Source of the DNA: Chloroflexota bacterium
Lineage (GTDB): Bacteria; Chloroflexota; UBA5177
Length of the DNA: 64,000 nt
Assembly: GCA_036752825.1 (NCBI GenBank)
Contig: DAIORV010000001.1
Location: 42,843 to 106,842 of the forward strand
Direction of reading: 5' to 3'
Positions 42,188-53,727 of this stretch are shown here, piece by piece; within the stretch, counting starts at the first letter, position 1; each line of letters opens with the position of its first letter. Both the position numbers and the translations under genes were made by a program. The notes beneath the pieces were generated by a model. The model was not told the DNA's origin. It made no database searches and saw only the letters and a program-made list of their open reading frames with translations.

Positions 42188-44470
42188 GTGAACGTCGACC
42201 AGGTCGTCGAGCGTTTCCTCACCGACCCTCAGATAGCCGTAAATGTCGCCGCCTACCGCGAGCTTCCCGCATGCGATGCGCACTTCGAGGATTTTCCGGC
42301 CCAAATAGACGGGAGGATCGTGGAGGCTTTTCGTAGGGGAGGCATTTCCCGTCTCTATTCCCATCAACTAGAGGCAATCGACGCCGTGCTCGCCGGGAAG
42401 AACGTGGCGGTGGTGACTCCAACCGCGTCGGGAAAGACGCTCTGCTACAACGTCCCGGTACTCAACTCGATAGTCGCCGACAGTTCTGCCAGGGCGCTGT
42501 ATCTTTTCCCGACCAAGGCTCTCTCTCAGGATCAAGTGAGCGAGCTGCACGACGTTGTTACGGCGCTTGGCGTGGACATCAAAACATTCACGTACGACGG
42601 GGACACGCCGCAAACTGCCCGCAAAGCCATCCGCTCGGCGGGCCACATCGTGGTCACCAATCCTGACATGCTTCACACGGGCATCCTGCCGCACCACACG
42701 CGTTGGATCCGCCTTTTCGAAAACTTACGCTTCGTCGTTGTGGACGAGCTTCATGTCTATCGCGGAGTGTTTGGAAGTCACGTCACAAATGTACTTCGAC
42801 GGCTCAAGCGAATCTGCAAGTATTACGGCTCGGATCCGCAGTTCATCTGCTGCTCGGCCACGATCGCCAACCCACGGGAGCTTGCAGAACGGATCATTGA
42901 ACGGCCGATTGAGCTCGTCGACAGTAATGGAGCCCCGCGGGGCAAGAAACACGTGCTCATCTACAATCCGCCGGTCGTGAACCGCGAGCTGGGACTTCGT
43001 GGAAGCTCTCGGTTTGCAGCCCGAGACCTCGCCGCCGAACTCGTAACAAATGGCATCCAGACCTTGGTTTTCACGCGCAGCCGGACTGGCGTAGAGATCC
43101 TGCTCGGCTATCTACGCGAACGTCTCGGCCATCGCGAACGCGACACGATTCGTGGCTACCGGAGTGGGTATCTTCCGCTGCAGCGCCGTGAGATTGAGCG
43201 GGGCCTGAGGGACGGATCGGTGCGTGGCGTCGTGGCCACGAACGCCCTCGAGCTTGGTATCGATATCGGTGCCCTCGATGCCTGTGTAATCACGGGCTTC
43301 CCGGGCACGATTGCCAGCACCTGGCAGCAGATGGGCCGCGCCGGCAGGCGTAACGATTCTTCGGTCGCCATTCTCGTTGCCAGCAGCAACGCTCTGGATC
43401 AATTTCTTGCCACTCATCCTGACTACTTCTTTGATCGGTCCCCCGAATCGGGCCTGGTCGACCCCAACAACCTGATCATCCTGGTCAATCACATCAAGTG
43501 CGCCGCTTTCGAGCTTCCATTTAAGGATGGCGAGCAGTTTGGACCGGAGGGAACTGCTGAGATTCTGCGATTCCTCGAGCAGAACGAAGTAGTTCATCAC
43601 GCGGACGGAGTATGGCATTGGATGTCGGACTCTTTCCCGGCGCAGGAGATCAGTCTTCGTACGGCAGCGGCCGACAACGTGGTGATCGTCGATCAGGGGC
43701 CGCCCGCTCGGGTGGTCGGTGAAATTGATAGGGTCTCCGCTCCCAGCATGGTTCACGAGGAAGCGATCTACATCCATGAGGGACAGCAGTACCAGGTGGA
43801 GCGGCTAGACGTAGAGGAGAAAAAGGCGTTTGTTCGACTCGTCGATGTCGATTACTACACCGACGCCGAGCTGGCCGTGAAGGTAAACGTCCTCGAGGTC
43901 TTCGACGACGCTGACGGCCGAACTCACGGCGAAGTGTCGGTCACGTATCTGCCGACTATCTTCAAGAAGATCAAACTTGGTACGCATGAAAACGTGGGGT
44001 GGGGACAGATTCACCTCGCTGAGGACACGTTCCACACCACCGCCTACTGGTTGCGTTTGCCGGTCCATGTCGCCGAGACCATGCCTCGCATCGAGCTGGA
44101 ATGTGGGCTGCTCGGCATGGCAACGGTGCTCGGTCAAGTGGCCCCACTATTCCTCATGTGCGATCCGTCCGACATTGCAGTCTGGCCCGAGATCAAGTCG
44201 ACATTCACCAATGCGCCGACCGTGTATCTTTACGATCGGGTGCCTGGCGGCATCGGATTTAGCAAGCGACTGTTTCACATGCACGGGCAGCTTCTTGGCA
44301 ACGCCGCTCACATGATATCCCGATGCCCCTGCGAGTACGGATGCCCTTCGTGCGTAGGGCCGCAACATAGTCGGGAGCCCAACTCCAAAATGGCGACTCT
44401 GAGACTCATTGGAGTCATGCTCGATGAGGCACGGGTTCCGGTCCTGCAAGAGAAACCGAGGATGGCATGA
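42188..44470 (+). CDS. mrfA: DEAD/DEAH-box helicase with a C-terminal DUF1998 zinc-binding domain (B. subtilis MrfA/YprA-like)
   Basis: Walker A 'VTPTASGKTLCYN', DExH 'VVVDELHVYRG', helicase C motifs, and a terminal Cys cluster 'CPCEYGCPSCVGP' (DUF1998). Confidence 0.75.
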   Translation: MNVDQVVERFLTDPQIAVNVAAYRELPACDAHFEDFPAQIDGRIVEAFRRGGISRLYSHQLEAIDAVLAGKNVAVVTPTASGKTLCYNVPVLNSIVADSSARALYLFPTKALSQDQVSELHDVVTALGVDIKTFTYDGDTPQTARKAIRSAGHIVVTNPDMLHTGILPHHTRWIRLFENLRFVVVDELHVYRGVFGSHVTNVLRRLKRICKYYGSDPQFICCSATIANPRELAERIIERPIELVDSNGAPRGKKHVLIYNPPVVNRELGLRGSSRFAARDLAAELVTNGIQTLVFTRSRTGVEILLGYLRERLGHRERDTIRGYRSGYLPLQRREIERGLRDGSVRGVVATNALELGIDIGALDACVITGFPGTIASTWQQMGRAGRRNDSSVAILVASSNALDQFLATHPDYFFDRSPESGLVDPNNLIILVNHIKCAAFELPFKDGEQFGPEGTAEILRFLEQNEVVHHADGVWHWMSDSFPAQEISLRTAAADNVVIVDQGPPARVVGEIDRVSAPSMVHEEAIYIHEGQQYQVERLDVEEKKAFVRLVDVDYYTDAELAVKVNVLEVFDDADGRTHGEVSVTYLPTIFKKIKLGTHENVGWGQIHLAEDTFHTTAYWLRLPVHVAETMPRIELECGLLGMATVLGQVAPLFLMCDPSDIAVWPEIKSTFTNAPTVYLYDRVPGGIGFSKRLFHMHGQLLGNAAHMISRCPCEYGCPSCVGPQHSREPNSKMATLRLIGVMLDEARVPVLQEKPRMA

Positions 44471-45735
44471 GCCTCGAGGAAAGGCTTCAAAGCGTACGGA
44501 AGCACATGGCGCTCGCGCAAGCCGCAACGGTTGCTCCCCCGAGGCGATCGCCTATCCCTCACGACTGGACGGGCCGCCTGGCCGGCAATGTCGAGTTCTT
44601 GGGCGCGGCGGGCTCTTTCTCGGTCACCTCGTCGTACGAGTCCGGCCACACTCACGGGCAACAGCGATTTTCGGACCTCACGACCGTCACCGGCAACGCG
44701 TTCTCGGTCGTATGTAGGGACCCGGAGCTCTCGTACGCCAACCTTCAAGGTGCTGTGTTTCTCGATACGGAGACAACCGGGCTCGGAATGGGAACCGGGA
44801 CCTACGTCTTTCTCGTCGGAGCGGGCTATATGGAGGGGGACCGTTTCATCGTCAAGCAGTTCTTTCTGGACGCTCCAGGTGATGAGCGTGTGCTTCTCGA
44901 AGCGCTTGGCAGTTTCCTCTCCAGGTTCCCGGTCCTCATTACTTTCAACGGCAAGGCCTTCGATTGGCCGCTGCTGGAAAGCAGATTTAGGTTGCATCGG
45001 CGGTCCGTTCCATTCGACGATCCGCCCCACGTCGATCTCCTCCATCCAGCTCGCCGCCTCTGGAAAAGGCGCCTGGACAGTTGCGCGCTGTCGTCGCTCG
45101 AAACTCAGATTCTTGGGGTCCGTCGAACAATCGAGGACGTGCCGGGGTGGGAGATACCATTCCGGTACTTCGGGTATCAAAGGTCTGGAGATGGGTCTCA
45201 GCTCGAGGGCGTCTTTTACCACAATCTGGTCGACATACTGTCCCTCGCGTCGCTTGCCCTGCACATCGATCGCGTCGTCGCTGATCCCAACTGCGGACTG
45301 GTCGAGCACGCGACCGACTTCTTCTGCATAGGCAAGGTCTACGAGGTCAGTGGAGACGGCGACATGGCCGTCTATTGTTATGAGCGAGCTCTCAGGCTCG
45401 GTGTGCCTGATGAGCTGCGACCGGATTGCTTCCTGCGGCTGGGAACCCTGCACAAACGCCAGAGGCGATGGGACGCCGCGATTCAGGCGTGGGAGTCGCT
45501 GCTGGACGAGGGAGGTCGGGCGGGGCTGGTGGCTCGCGTAGAGCTTGCGAAGTTTTACGAGCACGTCGAACGCGATTACGTGACGGCTATCGATCATGTT
45601 CAGCACGCGCTGGTGCTCGCAGAGCTCTTCGATAGCCCATGGCCTGATGCCAATCTACGGGACCTGGAGCACCGATTGAGCAGACTGTTCAACCGCTCGA
45701 TTCGCGCTCGAGACTGGGCGGGGACATATGGTTGA
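44467..45735 (+). CDS. mrfB: DEDD/RNase-T-like exonuclease with a C-terminal TPR domain (MrfB/YprB-like)
   Basis: ATGA overlap with mrfA. Exo motif I 'FLDTETTGLG' and motif II 'ITFNGKAFDWPLL'. Helical TPR-like tail. Confidence 0.65.
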   Translation: MSLEERLQSVRKHMALAQAATVAPPRRSPIPHDWTGRLAGNVEFLGAAGSFSVTSSYESGHTHGQQRFSDLTTVTGNAFSVVCRDPELSYANLQGAVFLDTETTGLGMGTGTYVFLVGAGYMEGDRFIVKQFFLDAPGDERVLLEALGSFLSRFPVLITFNGKAFDWPLLESRFRLHRRSVPFDDPPHVDLLHPARRLWKRRLDSCALSSLETQILGVRRTIEDVPGWEIPFRYFGYQRSGDGSQLEGVFYHNLVDILSLASLALHIDRVVADPNCGLVEHATDFFCIGKVYEVSGDGDMAVYCYERALRLGVPDELRPDCFLRLGTLHKRQRRWDAAIQAWESLLDEGGRAGLVARVELAKFYEHVERDYVTAIDHVQHALVLAELFDSPWPDANLRDLEHRLSRLFNRSIRARDWAGTYG

Positions 45736-47749: not shown

Positions 47750-48903
47750 AAGTCCTCATTGCTCCTCAGGGCTTCAAGGGCAGCCTGGAGGCGGTGGAGG
47801 TCGCGAATGCGATTGCCCGCGGCGTTCGACAGGTTTTCAGCGACGCGAGTCTGACCGTCTTGCCGATTGCGGACGGTGGCGAGGGAACCGTGCGGGCCTT
47901 GGTGCAGGCCAGCAATGGACGCTCGGTTGTAAGTAGGGTTACTGGTCCGCTCGGACGACCGGTCAACGCCACTTGGGGAATACTCGGTGACGAGCGAACC
48001 GCAGTAATTGAAATGGCGGCGGCTTCCGGACTCCCTTTGATACGGCGTGACGAACGCAATCCGATGCACACGACGTCATTTGGAACCGGAGAGCTGATCC
48101 TTCGTGCGCTCGACGCCGGTGTCCGACACGTCATCGTCGGTATTGGAGGCAGTGCCACGAACGACGGTGGAGCCGGCATGGCGCAGGCCCTCGGAGCTCA
48201 CTTGCTCGATGCTCGAGGGCAGGAGCTGGGGCCGGGCGGCGCGTCCCTCGGCACACTGGATCGCATCGACACGTCGGAGCTCGACCCGCGCATCAACGGA
48301 CTCGAGGTTGACGTTGCGTGCGACGTTAACAATCCGCTCACGGGCCCGACCGGGGCTAGCCTCGTGTACGGGCCTCAAAAAGGAGCCACGCCCCAAATGG
48401 CAGAGGAGCTGGACTCTGCTCTCTCACGGTATGCAGATATCTTGAAGCGCGATCTCGGTCAAGATGTTGGGGCCGTGCCCGGTGCTGGAGCAGCAGGCGG
48501 TCTCGGAGCAGGGCTCATTGCCTTCCTCCAAGCGCGACTGCGGCCCGGCGTAGACCTGGTATTCGGAGCCATGGACATAGAGCGCCACCTTGAGGGCGCC
48601 GATCTAGTGATCACCGGTGAGGGTCGGATAGATCGGCAAGATCTCTACGGAAAGGCTCCCATGGGAATCGCTCAACGGGCTCGGGCGAGAGGCATCCCGT
48701 GTTTCGCCGTGGCGGGCAGCACGGGCAGAGACTATCACGTGGTCTATGATCACGGACTCGATGCCGTGATCGGAACCGTAAACCGGCCCATGCAGCTCGA
48801 TCGCGCTATTGCGGAAGGCTCCCGGCTCATCACTGAAGCAGCAATGCGTGCCTGTCGGCTTCTGCGCGTGGGTATGCGCATACAGGCTGGTCGAGAGCCT
48901 TAG
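47746..48903 (+). CDS. Glycerate kinase (GlxK/GarK family)
   Basis: 'MKVLIAPQGFKGSL', 'IADGGEGT' and 'VITGEGRID' are glycerate-kinase family motifs. ATGA overlap with the upstream gene. Confidence 0.8.
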   Translation: MKVLIAPQGFKGSLEAVEVANAIARGVRQVFSDASLTVLPIADGGEGTVRALVQASNGRSVVSRVTGPLGRPVNATWGILGDERTAVIEMAAASGLPLIRRDERNPMHTTSFGTGELILRALDAGVRHVIVGIGGSATNDGGAGMAQALGAHLLDARGQELGPGGASLGTLDRIDTSELDPRINGLEVDVACDVNNPLTGPTGASLVYGPQKGATPQMAEELDSALSRYADILKRDLGQDVGAVPGAGAAGGLGAGLIAFLQARLRPGVDLVFGAMDIERHLEGADLVITGEGRIDRQDLYGKAPMGIAQRARARGIPCFAVAGSTGRDYHVVYDHGLDAVIGTVNRPMQLDRAIAEGSRLITEAAMRACRLLRVGMRIQAGREP

Positions 48904-48942
48904 CGGTTCACCTGCTGGTATAATTCTACGTCTCGCTTCGGG

Positions 48943-48971
48943 CAACACCCTCTCCCGGAGGGTGTTGTTTT
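48943..48971 (+). terminator. Rho-independent terminator after glycerate kinase
   Basis: 10-bp stem CAACACCCTC/GAGGGTGTTG with loop tcccg, followed by TTTT. An extended -10 (TGgTATAAT, 48916-48924) lies just upstream. Confidence 0.6.
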
Positions 48972-48988
48972 CATATATAAGGAACCCC

Positions 48989-49936
48989 GTGAGAAGTCTC
49001 TTCCGTCGCAGCCCAGGTGAGCCGAAGACAGAGGAGCAGCAGCAGCTCGACCAGGCAGTCAGCAAGACCAGAGAAAGCTCCTTTCGCCGAATCTCGACTC
49101 TCTTTCACGAAGCGATCGTGACGGACGAAACCTGGGAGGAGCTCGAGGATCTTTTGGTTCAGGCTGACGTCGGTCCCGTCACCGCCGCTCGCCTAGTCGA
49201 AGACGCTCGCGGGGAGGTCGAAACGCTCGAAGAGCGTACCGCGGTCGAGGCGGAAACTGCTATCCGAGGCCAGATGGTAGACGTTCTCGGATCCGACAGC
49301 CGCGTGCCGCTCGAGAAAATGCCTTCCGGAACGGTCCTCCTGATGGTGGGGGTCAACGGCTCCGGAAAGACCACCACGACCGCCAAGATTGCTCGCTACC
49401 TCGAACGTCATGGACGCACCGTGCTACTCGCGGCTGCTGACACCTTTAGAGCTGCAGCCATCGATCAGCTTCGCGTGTGGGGAGAACGGGTCAAGGCGCC
49501 CGTCGTGGCCCATCAGCAGGAGGCGGACCCTGGTGCCGTCGTCTTCGACGCGGTGCGAGCGGCCCTCGCCCGCCATGTCGACTTCGTCATAGTCGACACC
49601 GCCGGTAGACTGCACACGAAATTCAATCTGATGGAAGAATTGCAGAAGATTCGTCGGGTGGTGGGAAAAGCGAACCCCGAGGCTGCGATCATCGCGCTAC
49701 TTGTGATTGACGCCACGACGGGTCAAAATGCCATTCTGCAGGCCAAGAGCTTCCTGGCGACCGTGGAGGTCGACGGCATAATCCTGGCAAAGCTGGACGG
49801 CACGGCCAAGGGTGGTGTTGCTTTCTCGGTCTACAACGAGCTGAAGGTTCCGATCTGGTACGTGGGCACTGGTGAGACAATGGACGATTTCGCAGCATTT
49901 GATCATTTAGAGTTTGTCAATGCACTCTTCGACTGA
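48989..49936 (+). CDS. ftsY: Signal recognition particle receptor FtsY (NG domain only, minimal A region)
   Basis: 'LLMVGVNGSGKTTTTAKIA', 'DTAGR', 'AKLDGTAKGG'. GTG 48989 follows an aaggaa RBS; the ORF-track start 48809 overlaps glxK. Confidence 0.85.
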   Translation: MRSLFRRSPGEPKTEEQQQLDQAVSKTRESSFRRISTLFHEAIVTDETWEELEDLLVQADVGPVTAARLVEDARGEVETLEERTAVEAETAIRGQMVDVLGSDSRVPLEKMPSGTVLLMVGVNGSGKTTTTAKIARYLERHGRTVLLAAADTFRAAAIDQLRVWGERVKAPVVAHQQEADPGAVVFDAVRAALARHVDFVIVDTAGRLHTKFNLMEELQKIRRVVGKANPEAAIIALLVIDATTGQNAILQAKSFLATVEVDGIILAKLDGTAKGGVAFSVYNELKVPIWYVGTGETMDDFAAFDHLEFVNALFD

Positions 49937-49965
49937 CATGAGGGCGGAAACGCTCCGTCACGCGC

Positions 49966-51303
49966 ATGTTTGAGGCACTTTCGGACCGGTTGACGGACAT
50001 CTTTCAGGGTCTCCGAAGCAAGGGCACGCTGACCGAGCGAGATGTCGACCAGGCCATGCGCGAAATTCGCATGTCGCTCCTCGAGGCCGACGTGAATTTT
50101 AAGGTCGTAAAGGAGTTCGTTGCGCACGTGAAGGAGCGAAGTGTCGGCTCCGAAGTGCTTCAAAGCCTGACTCCTGCGCAGCAGGTTGTGAAGATCGTGC
50201 ACGAGGAGCTGCTCGCCATTCTGGGCGAGCCCGCAAGACTCGAGCTCTCCGGCACTCCTCCTTCGGTCATCCTGCTCGCGGGTTTGCAGGGCTCCGGAAA
50301 GACGACGACGGCCGCCAAGCTGGCTAACTATCTTCGCAAGCAGGGGCAGTATCCAGTGTTGGCAGCTCTCGACATCTATCGTCCTGCCGCCATAGACCAG
50401 CTCATTTCGCTAGGCAAGCAGCTGAATGTCCCCGTTCATAGCGAAGGAAGCAAGGTCGATCCCGTAAAGATCGCGGGAAACGCCGTCAGTGAAGCACGCC
50501 GCAACGGAAATACCGTGGTCATTCTGGACACCGCCGGTCGCTTGCACGTAGACGACGACATGATGCGGGAGCTGCAAGAGATAGAAGCACGGGTCAAGCC
50601 GAGTGAGACGCTGTTGGTAGCCGACGCGATGACCGGACAGGACGCGGTGCACACCGCGGAAGAGTTCAACAGATCCGTGAAGCTTACCGGCCTGATCCTT
50701 ACCAAGATGGATGGCGACGCTCGAGGTGGAGCTGCGCTGTCCATTCGGCATGTCACGGGCATTCCGATCAAATTCGTGGCGACCGGCGAGAAGACGGACG
50801 CGCTTGATCTCTTCCACCCGGATCGACTTGCACAGCGGATCCTCGGAATGGGGGACGTTCTCTCTCTGATCGAACGAACCGAGGAGGCATTTTCCAAAGA
50901 TCAGCAGGAGCTAATCGAAAAGAAAATGCGCCGAGCGGAGTTTGACTTCGATGATTTTCTGCAGACCATGTCGACCATCCGAAAAATGGGGCCTCTCTCA
51001 AACATCATGGAGATGATTCCGGGGATGCGGGGCGCCATGAAGCAGATGGGCGGTATGCCCAATGTCGATGACAAGAACTTCAAGCGCATCGAAGCCATCA
51101 TCACGTCCATGACGAAGCACGAGCGCCGCTCTCCGGGATTGATTGACGGTAGCCGTCGCAAGCGAATCGCGCGCGGCAGCGGGACATCGGTGCAGGAGGT
51201 CAACGAGCTTCTCAATCGCTTCAAAGACATGCAGAAACTGATGAAGCAGCTGACCAAGGGCAAGATGCGGTTGCCCAAGGGCATGGGCCTTCCCGGCCTT
51301 TGA
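49966..51303 (+). CDS. ffh: Signal recognition particle protein Ffh
   Basis: NG domain 'LLAGLQGSGKTTTAAKLA', 'DTAGR', 'TKMDGDARGG', and a Met-rich M domain 'MRGAMKQMGGMP'. Confidence 0.95.
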   Translation: MFEALSDRLTDIFQGLRSKGTLTERDVDQAMREIRMSLLEADVNFKVVKEFVAHVKERSVGSEVLQSLTPAQQVVKIVHEELLAILGEPARLELSGTPPSVILLAGLQGSGKTTTAAKLANYLRKQGQYPVLAALDIYRPAAIDQLISLGKQLNVPVHSEGSKVDPVKIAGNAVSEARRNGNTVVILDTAGRLHVDDDMMRELQEIEARVKPSETLLVADAMTGQDAVHTAEEFNRSVKLTGLILTKMDGDARGGAALSIRHVTGIPIKFVATGEKTDALDLFHPDRLAQRILGMGDVLSLIERTEEAFSKDQQELIEKKMRRAEFDFDDFLQTMSTIRKMGPLSNIMEMIPGMRGAMKQMGGMPNVDDKNFKRIEAIITSMTKHERRSPGLIDGSRRKRIARGSGTSVQEVNELLNRFKDMQKLMKQLTKGKMRLPKGMGLPGL

Positions 51304-51387
51304 CATGACCACCCTCTCAAAAGGTGGCAGGCGGAGTCCGGACCTCATGTCTCCTGGTTGGCTTCGCCGGCCGATAGGACGCGCTTG

Positions 51388-53121
51388 ATGACTTCTCTGC
51401 ACGGCGAGAGATACGATCGCGGAGACGCTGAAGACTCCACGGCGGTTGACCCTGCCAATCCTCAGGCGGAGGGAACATGTGTTTACCTCGGCAAGGCTGA
51501 TGCAGAACAAGTTCAACCGGAGGCGATGCAGCAGCTTTTCCAGCGACTGACTACTCTGCGTCATCCAAACGTTGCACGCGTCCGAGAGTTGTCTCTGGAG
51601 GACGATGCGCTGACGCTGGTTGTCGATCCCGTGCATGGTATGCCCCTGTCTGAGTACGTGGCGACACGAGAACCCGGTATCGCTGAAGTGAGGAAGCTGT
51701 CCATCCAACTTGTCTCCGCCCTCGCATACCTGCAGAAGCATCTGCCCGGATTGCGACTCCGACTTGAGCATGTTCTCGTCGGAGACGGAAGCTTGGTTCT
51801 CACCGGGGCGAATCTTGTCCAGCTCAAAGGGGTCTCGTGGCCCAGGGACTTTCCGTCCTCGATCGCCTTTGCGATTGAGGCGCCGGAGCCTGAAGAGAAA
51901 CGTGACGAGACGGCAACGGTATTCACCGCCGGCGCAGTCACGTACCACATGCTCACAAGGGTGGCGGCGGGATCTGCACGCGACGCTTGGGGTGCCGCCG
52001 CGATAGCATTCGAGCATTTCGTTCGGGAGCGCGTCCCCCCGAGCGACCTGGTTCGAAACATACCCAAGCAATGGGATGAGGCGGTCCTCCGAGCTCTTTC
52101 GGTAAACCCAGGCGATCGATTCCCGACGTTGGAAGCGCTCCAGCAAGCATTGGCAGAGCTCGAGGCTTTGGACTACGAAGATGAAGAGGCGGCTGTGGCA
52201 ACAAGCTCGCCACTACCGGCTCCTCTGCCTCTGGACCTTCCGTTTCCTTACTATTTAGAGCCAGACAATGAAGCCTCGGGAAGCCGCTGGCTGATTCCCG
52301 GGATGACCGTGATGGGTCTTGCCCTGGCGGCAGCCGTCTTCGTAGCGGCTTGGTTCGTAGTCGGCGGACACACGAAGACCTTGAAGCCAGCGCAGCTCGC
52401 CGCGGTCTCAGGTCTGCGCCTTGTAGAATCTGCACCGGTCTCCGGTTCAGACGTCATTCTCGCGTGGTCACCGGTAGTTGGTGCCGACCGCTATCGAGTG
52501 CGAATAACGGCTTCCTCGGACGGTAAGACGTCCACGTTCGCCACTTCTCGACCCCGATACGCCTTTCGAAATGCGGCAGGCCAGCAGTCATTCGTATGGA
52601 TGGCGTCTGCCCACACCTCCAATGGCTGGACTCCCTTTTCGCCAGCAAGAACCTTCATCGTACGCGCTCCTAGAGTCGGCGTTCCGGCGCTGATTCGACC
52701 GACAGACAAGCAAATCTCCCATACCAAGAACGTGACCTTTTGCTGGCTTGCCGTGACGGACGCGCGCGGCTACCTTCTGCGGGCCGGCACTCTCACAGTT
52801 CATACGCTCAATAGGTGTCACCTAATGACCTTGGGATACGGCAAGTACGCCTGGACCGTCACCGCGCAGGTGCAGGGCACTCGTCTCTATACGGGACCGA
52901 CCGCTCCGCCGCGCGTCATCGATATTGTGCCGGCTCGAGGACGAGCCACGGCAGCTCCGACCGCGACAACGTTTCCCGCGGCTACGGCCGTCGCGCCCGG
53001 ACCGCCAGTCGTCAGTCAACCTCCTCCGGTTCCCACTGCAGTCGTTGCCGCCCCTGTCGCGCCCGCTCCAGTCAATCCAGCCCCGACTGCGCCCGCGTGT
53101 GTCCCATTCGTCAATTGTTAG
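51388..53121 (+). CDS. Membrane protein with a degenerate Ser/Thr-kinase-like (pseudokinase) cytoplasmic domain, one TM helix, extracellular Ig/Fn3-like repeats and a Pro-rich tail
   Basis: Kinase-like blocks 'LRHPNVARVRELSLEDDALTLVVDPVHGMPLSEYV' and 'LRLEHVLVGDGSLVL', with no HRD or DFG Asp and no Gly loop. TM helix 'MTVMGLALAAAVFVAAWFVVGG'. Two ~90-aa beta-rich repeats. ATG 51388 follows AGGA; TTG 51358 is the alternative. Confidence 0.6.
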   Translation: MTSLHGERYDRGDAEDSTAVDPANPQAEGTCVYLGKADAEQVQPEAMQQLFQRLTTLRHPNVARVRELSLEDDALTLVVDPVHGMPLSEYVATREPGIAEVRKLSIQLVSALAYLQKHLPGLRLRLEHVLVGDGSLVLTGANLVQLKGVSWPRDFPSSIAFAIEAPEPEEKRDETATVFTAGAVTYHMLTRVAAGSARDAWGAAAIAFEHFVRERVPPSDLVRNIPKQWDEAVLRALSVNPGDRFPTLEALQQALAELEALDYEDEEAAVATSSPLPAPLPLDLPFPYYLEPDNEASGSRWLIPGMTVMGLALAAAVFVAAWFVVGGHTKTLKPAQLAAVSGLRLVESAPVSGSDVILAWSPVVGADRYRVRITASSDGKTSTFATSRPRYAFRNAAGQQSFVWMASAHTSNGWTPFSPARTFIVRAPRVGVPALIRPTDKQISHTKNVTFCWLAVTDARGYLLRAGTLTVHTLNRCHLMTLGYGKYAWTVTAQVQGTRLYTGPTAPPRVIDIVPARGRATAAPTATTFPAATAVAPGPPVVSQPPPVPTAVVAAPVAPAPVNPAPTAPACVPFVNC

Positions 53122-53195: not shown

Positions 53196-53224
53196 TTGAC
53201 GATCACCTTGTCGGGCACTATACT
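53196..53224 (+). promoter_or_regulatory. Candidate mraZ promoter (TTGACG-17 nt-TATACT)
   Basis: -35 at 53196-53201 and -10 at 53219-53224. The predicted leader contains two GATTTAG direct repeats (53249-53255 and 53266-53272). Confidence 0.45.
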
Positions 53225-53274: not shown

Positions 53275-53727
53275 GTGTTCTTCGGTGAATACGAACGGAC
53301 GGTGGACTACAAGGGACGCCTGACGATCCCAGCCCACCTACTGGAGCCTACCGACAGCGCCGACTGGTCGCGCGTGATGGTAGTAAAGGGTGATGCGAGC
53401 TGTCTGTACGTCTACGATGTCAAGACGTGGAAGGTAGTCCTCGACGAAGCCTACAAGAGCATGGATGACGACGAAAGCCGTCTTTTCATGCACAGAGCCT
53501 TGCAGGATGCTCAGCTTTCGGATGTCGACAACCTGAAGCGCATCTCCGTTCCAATGTCTCTTCTCTCTCATGCAGCCATAGAAAAGCGCACCACGATAGT
53601 GGGAATGTTCAACCGGCTTGAGTTGTGGGATCCGGAACGCTGGCAAGGGTACCTGGACACCATGGAAGAGGTCCCGGTTCCGTCCATTGCGGACCTCTCT
53701 CGCGCCAGAATTCGTGAGGTTTCATAA
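53275..53727 (+). CDS. mraZ: Transcriptional regulator MraZ (tandem MraZ/SpoVT-AbrB domains)
   Basis: 'MFFGEYERTVDYKGRLTIPAHL' and a second repeat '...VDNLKRISVPMSLLSHAAI'. GTG start. No rsmH, ftsL or ftsI follows. Confidence 0.85.
   Translation: MFFGEYERTVDYKGRLTIPAHLLEPTDSADWSRVMVVKGDASCLYVYDVKTWKVVLDEAYKSMDDDESRLFMHRALQDAQLSDVDNLKRISVPMSLLSHAAIEKRTTIVGMFNRLELWDPERWQGYLDTMEEVPVPSIADLSRARIREVS

Follow-up and report, generated by a model that had tools for sequence, protein, structure and literature searches.

The locus and the gene

The stretch analysed here (hereafter the window) comprises 64,000 nucleotides of an uncultured Chloroflexota bacterium (positions 42,843 to 106,842 of contig DAIORV010000001.1, assembly GCA_036752825.1) and carries, between ffh (49966-51303) and mraZ (53275-53727), a gene that we refer to as X. 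Its features, which were deduced from the sequence, support its classification as a catalytically dead Hanks-type kinase homologue, i.e., a predicted pseudokinase with a receptor-like architecture. The gene is a single open reading frame (ORF) on the forward strand that runs from an ATG to a stop codon (51388-53121; 577 codons and the stop, 577 aa), and it is followed by mraZ, mfd, topA, a xerC-like gene and hslVU, all of which lie on the same strand. An in-frame TTG at position 51358, 30 nt upstream of the ATG, is a possible alternative start; the orthologues begin with VTTI, MDTI, MTAT and VTIY, which line up with the ATG-initiated MTSL of X, and the public gene calls agree. A protein identical to X has been called on three public contigs, one of which is in the metagenome-assembled genome (MAG) GCA_002413265.1, and one member of the X family bears the NCBI label 'protein kinase [Chloroflexota bacterium]'. 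The Ffh that is encoded beside X shares 74% of its residues with the Ffh of a Chloroflexota soil MAG and approximately 60% with those of Roseilinea and Anaerolineae MAGs.

Homology and fold of the kinase-like domain

The homology of X to the protein kinases is genuine but weak and eroded. Against Pfam Pkinase (PF00069), X scored 19 bits, which is under the gathering cutoff of 31.7, and its NCBIfam matches were partial and far under the respective cutoffs; the best match of a phmmer search against the PDB was Stk1/PknB of S. aureus (4eqm; E 4e-7). The AlphaFold2 model, which was built on an alignment of 58 family sequences, had a mean predicted local distance difference test score (pLDDT) of 81, with most of the kinase-like domain above 90. 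In the model, residues 1-26 are disordered and are followed by beta3 (31-37), alphaC (44-55), beta4, beta5 and the helices alphaD to alphaI. The Foldseek matches of the model in the PDB formed two groups: bacterial Hanks kinases, i.e., S. aureus PknB/Stk1 4eqm (TM-score 0.61-0.64), M. tuberculosis PknB 6i2p and Xanthomonas PknS, and tandem FN3 pairs such as those of LAR, neogenin and integrin beta4. With its bilobal fold and detectable homology, X thus belongs to the Hanks-type (eukaryotic protein kinase-like) fold. The kinase-like domain on its own scored 63-76 bits both against the kinases that share the ectodomain of X and against other serine/threonine protein kinases (STPKs), i.e., it is equally distant from both.

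Loss of the catalytic motifs

The motifs of X were called from an alignment to active relatives that have the same ectodomain and, in the case of the catalytic loop, also to 4eqm. The glycine loop LGAGGMGRVF of the active relatives is replaced by RGDAEDSTAV in a region with a pLDDT below 50. The alphaC glutamate corresponds to L50, a position that is hydrophobic in all of the orthologues, and the alphaF aspartate corresponds to T176. The catalytic aspartate and the asparagine of HRDxKxxN (the latter replaced by H128) are missing not only in X but also in its orthologues, which read SAP, HAA, SGD or TNR at the HRD position. A catalytically competent Hanks Ser/Thr kinase has a glycine loop, HRDxKxxN and DFG, and X has none of them. 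Pseudokinases are defined by sequence as lacking at least one of the VAIK lysine, the HRD aspartate and the DFG aspartate; in X, both aspartates are gone and the fold is conserved. K36, which lies in the predicted beta3, could be the equivalent of the VAIK lysine if the beta3-alphaC loop were five residues shorter. The orthologues have Ser, Phe, Thr or Ser in its place, K36 has no alphaC glutamate as a partner, and the lysine-glutamate salt bridge of active kinases is missing. No alternative invariant cluster of acidic or basic residues that might replace the active site was present in the alignment of the orthologues. These results bear out a preliminary description that was made from the window's sequence and in which X had been proposed to be a membrane pseudokinase that keeps the Hanks-kinase topology and lacks the glycine loop, the HRD aspartate and DFG: the phmmer match to Stk1/PknB, the model, the Foldseek matches and the comparison of the orthologues all agree with it, and no catalytic residues came to light in the alignment to the active relatives. 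The same losses in the orthologues P0011, P0012, P0013 and P0014/P0278 indicate that the loss is ancient and stable.

The X clade is further characterised by motifs of its own, namely TG[AGS]N[LF][LV]P, an invariant tryptophan in the activation segment (W151), SP[IL] and AFEHF...PPS; neither N142 nor W151 varies among four orthologues. The motifs of the C-lobe from alphaF to alphaI are kept in X (...AF.H...PPS...P..WD...R[FY]), and approximately 28 residues lie from GAN (140-142) to the APE-like sequence EAPE. In two strain variants (P0004 and P0008, loci L092 and L093), the substitutions (Q116H, K117E, L122S, R123L, V131I, G132E and S135R) cluster at residues 116-135 (window 51733-51792), i.e., in the region of the degenerate catalytic loop, and 14 of the 14 nucleotide differences between P0008 and X fall inside the kinase-like domain. 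This clustering could reflect a recombination tract or a local hotspot of polymorphism.

Orthologues and selection

The same slot in the order ffh-X-mraZ-mfd is taken by the four to five orthologues, with identities of 29-43%, and every copy is intact. The proteins that flank them are 83-87% (Ffh), 69-83% (MraZ), 68-73% (Mfd) and 80-83% (TopA) identical to those of the window. Among the five orthologues, the mean pairwise identity was lowest in the N-terminus (17%), reached 33-36% in the fibronectin type III (Fn3) domains, 44% in alphaF-alphaI and 48% in the core of the C-lobe including the degenerate catalytic loop, and was highest in the last seven residues (71%). Since constraint is highest on the C-lobe and the C-terminal heptapeptide and lowest on the N-terminus, the pattern is the one expected of a docking surface and not of an ATP site.

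Between X and the strain variant of locus L092 (6% amino acid differences), the ratio of non-synonymous to synonymous substitution rates (dN/dS, Nei-Gojobori), which rests on small substitution counts, was 0.29 overall, 0.24 in the kinase-like domain and 0.40 in the ectodomain; the ffh fragment beside X had 17 synonymous and 0 non-synonymous changes in the same strain pair. These values indicate that X is under purifying selection, which is relaxed relative to that on housekeeping genes. Taken together, the intact syntenic orthologues, the conserved degenerate motifs and a dN/dS of approximately 0.3 argue that X is functional and is not decaying. In the closest sampled genome outside of the X clade (L004 2140-4000; Ffh 74% identical), ffh is followed by mraZ after a gap of 52 nt and X is missing; X is thus a lineage-specific insertion, and no function can be deduced from the genes beside it.

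Membrane topology, ectodomain and tail

The preliminary description had also predicted a single transmembrane (TM) helix, two beta-rich repeats of approximately 90 aa that resemble Ig or Fn3 domains and a PAPTAPA-type tail that ends in CVPFVNC. The helix was recovered from both the hydropathy profile and the model (Table 1). Both of the beta-rich units have the Fn3 fold according to the model and the family alignment, i.e., the seven-stranded sandwich of the PF00041 clan with a tryptophan in strand B and a tyrosine in strand C, and they were modelled as all-beta domains (about 345-428 and 433-515) with a pLDDT above 94; however, they share only this fold, and no sequence repeat was detectable between them. 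The tail is present, and its end is conserved in the orthologues. The cysteine pair C452/C477 is invariant in 33 of the 33 aligned ectodomains, and disulfides would be expected between these two residues and between the terminal cysteines. These two cysteine pairs suggest that the Fn3 side of the membrane is extracytoplasmic, and X would accordingly have its N-terminus inside and its C-terminus outside of the cell. Among the ORFs of the window and of the fetched loci, no other ended in a Pro-rich tail with CxxFxxC, as might be the case for a general sorting signal.

Table 1. Features of X in the window and proteins of the module family with a J-domain homologue
Feature	Position in the window	Strand	Basis and remarks
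Whole gene X, receptor-like pseudokinase	51388..53121	+	ORF, public gene calls, syntenic orthologues
N-terminus, aa 1-29, degenerate remnant of beta1-Gly-loop-beta2	51388..51474	+	Disordered, pLDDT 27-52; RGDAEDSTAV at GxGxxG
Kinase-like domain, aa 30-265 (beta3, alphaC, beta4-5, hinge, C-lobe alphaD-alphaI)	51475..52182	+	pLDDT mostly >90; Foldseek, phmmer
Degenerate catalytic loop G121-L-R-L-R-L-E-H128 replacing H-R-D-V-K-P-D-N	51748..51771	+	Alignment to active relatives and 4eqm
G140-A141-N142 replacing DFG	51805..51813	+	Alignment to active relatives; orthologues G[AGS]N
Acidic Pro-rich juxtamembrane linker, aa 266-300	52183..52287	+	Disordered, pLDDT <50 at aa 273-302; 19% identity among orthologues
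Single TM helix, aa 301-327	52288..52368	+	Only one hydropathy peak (300-329); helix 308-325 in the model
Fn3 domain 1, aa 345-428; W360, Y369 and W404 conserved	52420..52671	+	
Fn3 domain 2, aa 429-516; Cys pair C452/C477, W453, Y462, W489	52672..52935	+	Family alignment, model
Pro/Ala/Thr/Val-rich tail, aa 517-570, extended	52936..53097	+	pLDDT ~55; length varies in orthologues and paralogues
C-terminal heptapeptide C571-V-P-F-V-N-C577	53098..53118	+	Orthologue consensus C[VI][PA]F[VI][NTS]C
Module proteins with an HPD-less J-domain: P0037, P0044, P0046, P0051, P0063-65, P0082, P0089, P0094, P0110, P0124, P0125; loci L095, L102, L103			

Proteins that share the ectodomain

The X family was recovered by an exhaustive search of representatives. 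Word-indexed homologue searches with the single protein, the alignment of the pseudokinase clade and the ectodomain alignment returned only X itself, generic kinases and unrelated Fn3 proteins; no relatives were found in the GTDB genomes when searching with X or in the JGI metagenomes when searching with the orthologue alignment. A search with a narrower ectodomain alignment yielded five loci, which encode an active kinase, J-like proteins and a multi-Fn3 protein, and no further pseudokinase. Using a hidden Markov model of the ectodomain, the complete two-domain module was detected in approximately 45 cluster representatives among the fetched proteins.

In these proteins, the module, which consists of the TM helix, two Fn3 domains, a Pro-rich segment and a Cys loop, is paired with five kinds of cytoplasmic part. 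Active STPKs with GxGxxG, VAAK, HRD, DFG and APE form the first kind (P0017, P0018, P0021, P0025, P0026, P0036 and the gene at L100), of which P0017 scored 200 bits against Pfam Pkinase. The second is a pseudokinase type, here called HG, with VHGxLxPxN and without DFG or the glycine loop (Pfam Pkinase 56-88 bits), and the third is the fully degenerate pseudokinase type, which includes X. The fourth kind has an N-terminal J-domain homologue of approximately 70 aa (profile against DnaJ J-domains, E 8e-7) in which the HPD tripeptide is missing and is replaced by, e.g., A-L-A/V (Table 1), and the fifth has almost no cytoplasmic part. In most of the module proteins, the C-terminus consists of a Pro-rich tail and, at its very end, a short Cys-x(2-7)-Cys; the heptapeptide consensus is found in the X clade, in some members of the HG clade and in two proteins without a kinase domain. 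In a neighbour-joining tree of the ectodomains, which was built without support values, the X clade was monophyletic and grouped with those HG members that bear the heptapeptide consensus. This topology is compatible with a stepwise degeneration from active kinases through the HG type to the fully degenerate type, which we propose tentatively. The case for a common descent of X with the kinases that share its ectodomain is based on the shared architecture of TM helix, ectodomain and tail and on this weakly resolved tree; the ectodomain of X is only approximately 28-30% identical to those of the known active relatives.

Three HG-type relatives are found, in other contexts than that of X, at L090 10001-12819, L096 365-4019 and L098 5133-7623. 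One of them lies tail-to-tail, with a 4-nt overlap, with a sortase gene beside polysaccharide-synthesis genes, another follows a Kelch beta-propeller gene at a distance of 2 nt, and one lies 5 nt behind the gene of a 287-aa protein without a Pfam match. The metagenome Ga0207416 encodes, on separate contigs, both an active STPK that has the complete module (L100 3601-5694, tail ...CNPEVQAC) and a J-like protein in which only the first Fn3 domain is present (L103 3025-4665).

Comparison with described kinases and pseudokinases

The closest matches of X in both sequence and structure are the PknB/Stk1/PrkC receptor kinases (S. aureus 4EQM and M. tuberculosis PknB), with which it shares the order of an N-terminal cytoplasmic kinase domain, a linker, one TM helix and extracellular beta-rich domains. 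Unlike these kinases, X has no catalytic motifs, its beta1-beta2 region is disordered, and two Fn3 domains with a Pro-rich stalk take the place of the PASTA repeats; its score against the PASTA kinase model NF033483 was 43 bits compared to a cutoff of 450, with a match in the C-lobe only. The active STPKs that carry the module resemble X in their overall architecture, in the invariant ectodomain residues (W, Y, the C-W...C pair and W), in the Pro-rich tail and in the Cys loop, but they keep the catalytic motifs and have longer juxtamembrane linkers and other terminal loops such as CNPEVQAC.

A recent atlas of approximately 300,000 bacterial serine/threonine kinases recognises seven pseudokinase families (PMC12599244; bioRxiv 10.1101/2025.01.12.632604). 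In the searched text of the atlas and of a review, none of them is assigned to Chloroflexota and no Fn3 ectodomain is described (PMC12599244; bioRxiv 10.1101/2025.01.12.632604). MviN (MurJ) of M. tuberculosis, a member of the ActPs3 family, is described as a membrane-tethered regulatory scaffold that is phosphorylated by PknB, after which FhaA is recruited (PMC12599244). As far as these descriptions go, X resembles MviN in being a membrane-tethered bacterial pseudokinase with a complete loss of the catalytic motifs; however, the pseudokinase domain of MviN is joined in one protein with a lipid II flippase and a carbohydrate-binding domain, whereas X has no flippase and keeps an activation segment of approximately 28 residues. 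The hallmark given for the ActPs3 family, which is actinobacterial, is a deletion of approximately 40 residues in the activation loop (PMC12599244; bioRxiv 10.1101/2025.01.12.632604), and X, with its retained segment and its origin in Chloroflexota, lies outside of it. MviN was also absent from the best 60 sequence matches and the top 50 fold matches of X in the PDB.

EssB/YukC of the Firmicutes type VII secretion system (T7SSb) is presented as a monotopic protein with an N-terminal cytoplasmic pseudokinase domain, a degraded glycine loop and catalytic motifs and a scaffold role (PMC12599244). In contrast to X, it has a type VII gene context, another extracellular domain and, by the same account, a markedly reduced activation loop; the PDB sequence and fold searches detected no specific similarity between the two, and the neighbours of X are ftsY, ffh, mraZ, mfd, topA, the xerC-like gene and hslVU. 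The GLW pseudokinases of Proteobacteria are characterised by a conserved GLW at the HRD position and a poly-Leu/Trp beta3 (PMC12599244; bioRxiv 10.1101/2025.01.12.632604). As described there, they resemble X in having a TM helix C-terminal to the pseudokinase domain, and X happens to read G-L-R at HRD, but GLR occurs in X only and not in its orthologues, beta3 (CVYLGK, SIFLGS and similar) is not poly-Leu, and the phylum is another one. The CP1, DYD and DLHK families are reported either to be without TM segments or to retain parts of the catalytic triad (PMC12599244; bioRxiv 10.1101/2025.01.12.632604). Judging by these descriptions, X fits none of the seven families, although it may overlap with a group that was left unnamed there. 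We class X as a receptor-like pseudokinase that is specific to its lineage and whose ectodomain and tail form an undescribed module, and not as a new kind of system. Among eukaryotes, receptor pseudokinases such as HER3/ErbB3 and the plant BIR2-type co-receptors are single-pass receptors with a dead kinase domain, and they modulate an active paralogue by forming heterodimers with it or by sequestering it. Their likeness to X is an analogy only; they have the opposite topology (N-terminus outside), and the homology is limited to the kinase fold.

A link to a defence system was considered and rejected; the PADLOC and NCBIfam matches of X are partial C-lobe matches far under the cutoffs, and its neighbours are housekeeping genes. 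The scores against the anti-phage kinases PD-T4-6, MADS MAD6 and BREX PglW were at most 50 bits in PADLOC, and the NCBIfam scores were 46 compared to 460 and 15 compared to 990.

Proposed role and alternatives

Given these features, we consider it fairly probable that X acts as a non-catalytic transmembrane scaffold or co-receptor. It would descend from active receptor Ser/Thr kinases of Chloroflexota that had the same TM helix, ectodomain and tail, and would have its kinase-like domain in the cytoplasm, one TM helix, two Fn3 domains outside and a Pro-rich stalk ending in a Cys-x5-Cys loop. Being presumably incapable of phosphorylation, X would act non-catalytically: the Fn3 and stalk module may engage a partner in the envelope or outside of the cell, or the ectodomain of a paralogue, while the conserved C-lobe (alphaE, the degenerate catalytic loop, alphaF-alphaI and the alphaG surface with AFEHF..PPS) may dock a cytoplasmic partner. 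For the latter, an active paralogous kinase or a substrate of such a kinase would be the most plausible candidate, and X might then modulate signalling allosterically or by sequestration. The existence of active kinases with the same module means that potential partners with a matching ectodomain occur in this group of organisms, and MviN and EssB/YukC, as they are portrayed in the review, are bacterial precedents for a non-catalytic pseudokinase in the membrane (PMC12599244).

Several observations weigh against this role. No FHA protein, PP2C phosphatase or second kinase was found within approximately 10 kb of X, which for FHA and phosphatase partners had already been stated in the preliminary description, and the whole 64-kb window holds neither a second kinase nor a second ectodomain module. 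The surroundings of the paralogues are heterogeneous, and none of the neighbours seen there (Kelch propeller, sortase and polysaccharide genes, adenylate cyclase-TPR, GGDEF/EAL, PIN) recurs as a partner. X is only 29-39% identical to its orthologues and thus evolves far faster than its neighbours (68-87%), and, being absent from the closest relative that was sampled, whose Ffh is 74% identical, it is dispensable at that evolutionary distance. The N-lobe region that serves back-to-back dimerisation in the PknB-type kinases is disordered and unconserved in X. Finally, there is a small possibility that X itself may have retained some nucleotide binding through K36.

Alternatively, X could be a structural protein of the envelope in which the external Fn3 domains, stalk and Cys loop serve in the attachment or spacing of the cell wall, sheath or S-layer and the dead kinase is a relic that acts as a plug or anchor. 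Such a role would fit well with the occurrence of the same ectodomain on an active kinase, on two pseudokinase types, on an HPD-less J-domain or on almost nothing, with the top conservation of the terminal heptapeptide, with a Pro-rich segment whose 55-100 residues could reach across the cell wall, and with the relative that adjoins sortase and polysaccharide-synthesis genes. We nevertheless regard it as rather unlikely. The kinase-like domain shows no decay: its C-lobe is the best-conserved large region among the orthologues (44-48%), and the domain has a lower dN/dS (0.24) than the ectodomain (0.40), is predicted to be folded (pLDDT above 90) and conserves the clade-specific TGxN, W151 and AFEHF. 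The same C-lobe speaks against X being a decoy or dominant-negative receptor that competes for the ligand of an active paralogue or forms dead heterodimers and thereby damps signalling, as a pure decoy has no need for a conserved and well-folded cytoplasmic domain. The ectodomain fold and its invariant residues are common to X and the active kinases, X has no catalytic residue, and its ectodomain is fast-evolving with a relatively high dN/dS (0.40), all of which a decoy would explain; however, an identity of approximately 28-30% to the ectodomains of the active relatives does not imply a shared ligand, and the active kinases with this ectodomain are known from other contigs in the databases. 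A decoy role therefore appears quite improbable.

It is very improbable that X is an atypical active enzyme that binds a nucleotide and transfers a phosphoryl or another group by means of non-canonical residues, as do WNK, CASK, SelO and SidJ. Several proteins that were labelled as pseudokinases later proved to be active, a point that is also made in the review (PMC12599244), and K36 sits in the predicted beta3. Nonetheless, all of the motifs are lost in X (glycine loop, alphaC Glu, HRD Asp, catalytic Asn and DFG Asp), K36 is replaced by Ser, Phe or Thr in the orthologues, the beta1-beta2 lid is predicted to be disordered, and the orthologue alignment offers no invariant acidic or basic cluster as a substitute. 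The role of a non-catalytic scaffold or co-receptor thus remains the one that we prefer.

Bacterial pseudokinases have barely been studied, and X defines a further clade of them, which is known from metagenomes only. It does not open a long-standing question. Its relatives, in which active kinases, the intermediate HG type and the fully degenerate type stand on one ectodomain chassis, form an unusually clear evolutionary series and as such a natural system for studying how a receptor kinase becomes a non-catalytic receptor. With the HPD-less J-domain, this chassis bears another 'dead' domain of signalling proteins, and the extracytoplasmic part (two Fn3 domains, Pro-rich stalk and Cys loop) is an uncharacterised module in a phylum whose envelope is poorly understood. 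A bolder proposal would be that the TM helix, two Fn3 domains, stalk and Cys-x(2-7)-Cys constitute an undescribed, Chloroflexota-specific module that spans the envelope, that the heptapeptide is a new element for surface attachment or ligand presentation, and that the repeated coupling of the module to dead domains (two pseudokinase types and the HPD-less J-domain) forms a non-enzymatic outside-in coupling by which active paralogous kinases or chaperones are regulated; we offer this as a speculation that is unlikely to hold as a whole.

Other features of the window

Directly upstream of X, ftsY, which encodes the receptor of the signal recognition particle (SRP), adjoins ffh (SRP54) on the same strand (48809-51303). 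A functional link between X and ffh or mraZ was rejected because ffh and mraZ are directly adjacent in L004 and the HG-clade relatives of X lie in unrelated contexts. No terminator-like site was seen after X, and a sigma70-like site, TTGACG-17-TATACT, is located directly upstream of mraZ (53196-53224). Here, mraZ does not head a division and cell-wall cluster; mfd, topA, the xerC-like gene and hslVU come next. Antisense ORFs of up to 382 aa overlie ffh and X (e.g., 50998-52146 on the reverse strand), as is typical of DNA with approximately 59% GC, and they are backed by no homologue or gene call. Further upstream, a 760-aa helicase with DEAD, Helicase_C, WHD_HRQ1 and MZB domains (42188-44470, forward strand) overlaps by 4 nt with the gene of an RNase-H-like protein with TPRs (44467-45717, forward strand), a pair that, judged by its Pfam domains, resembles the helicase-exonuclease repair pair MrfA/MrfB.

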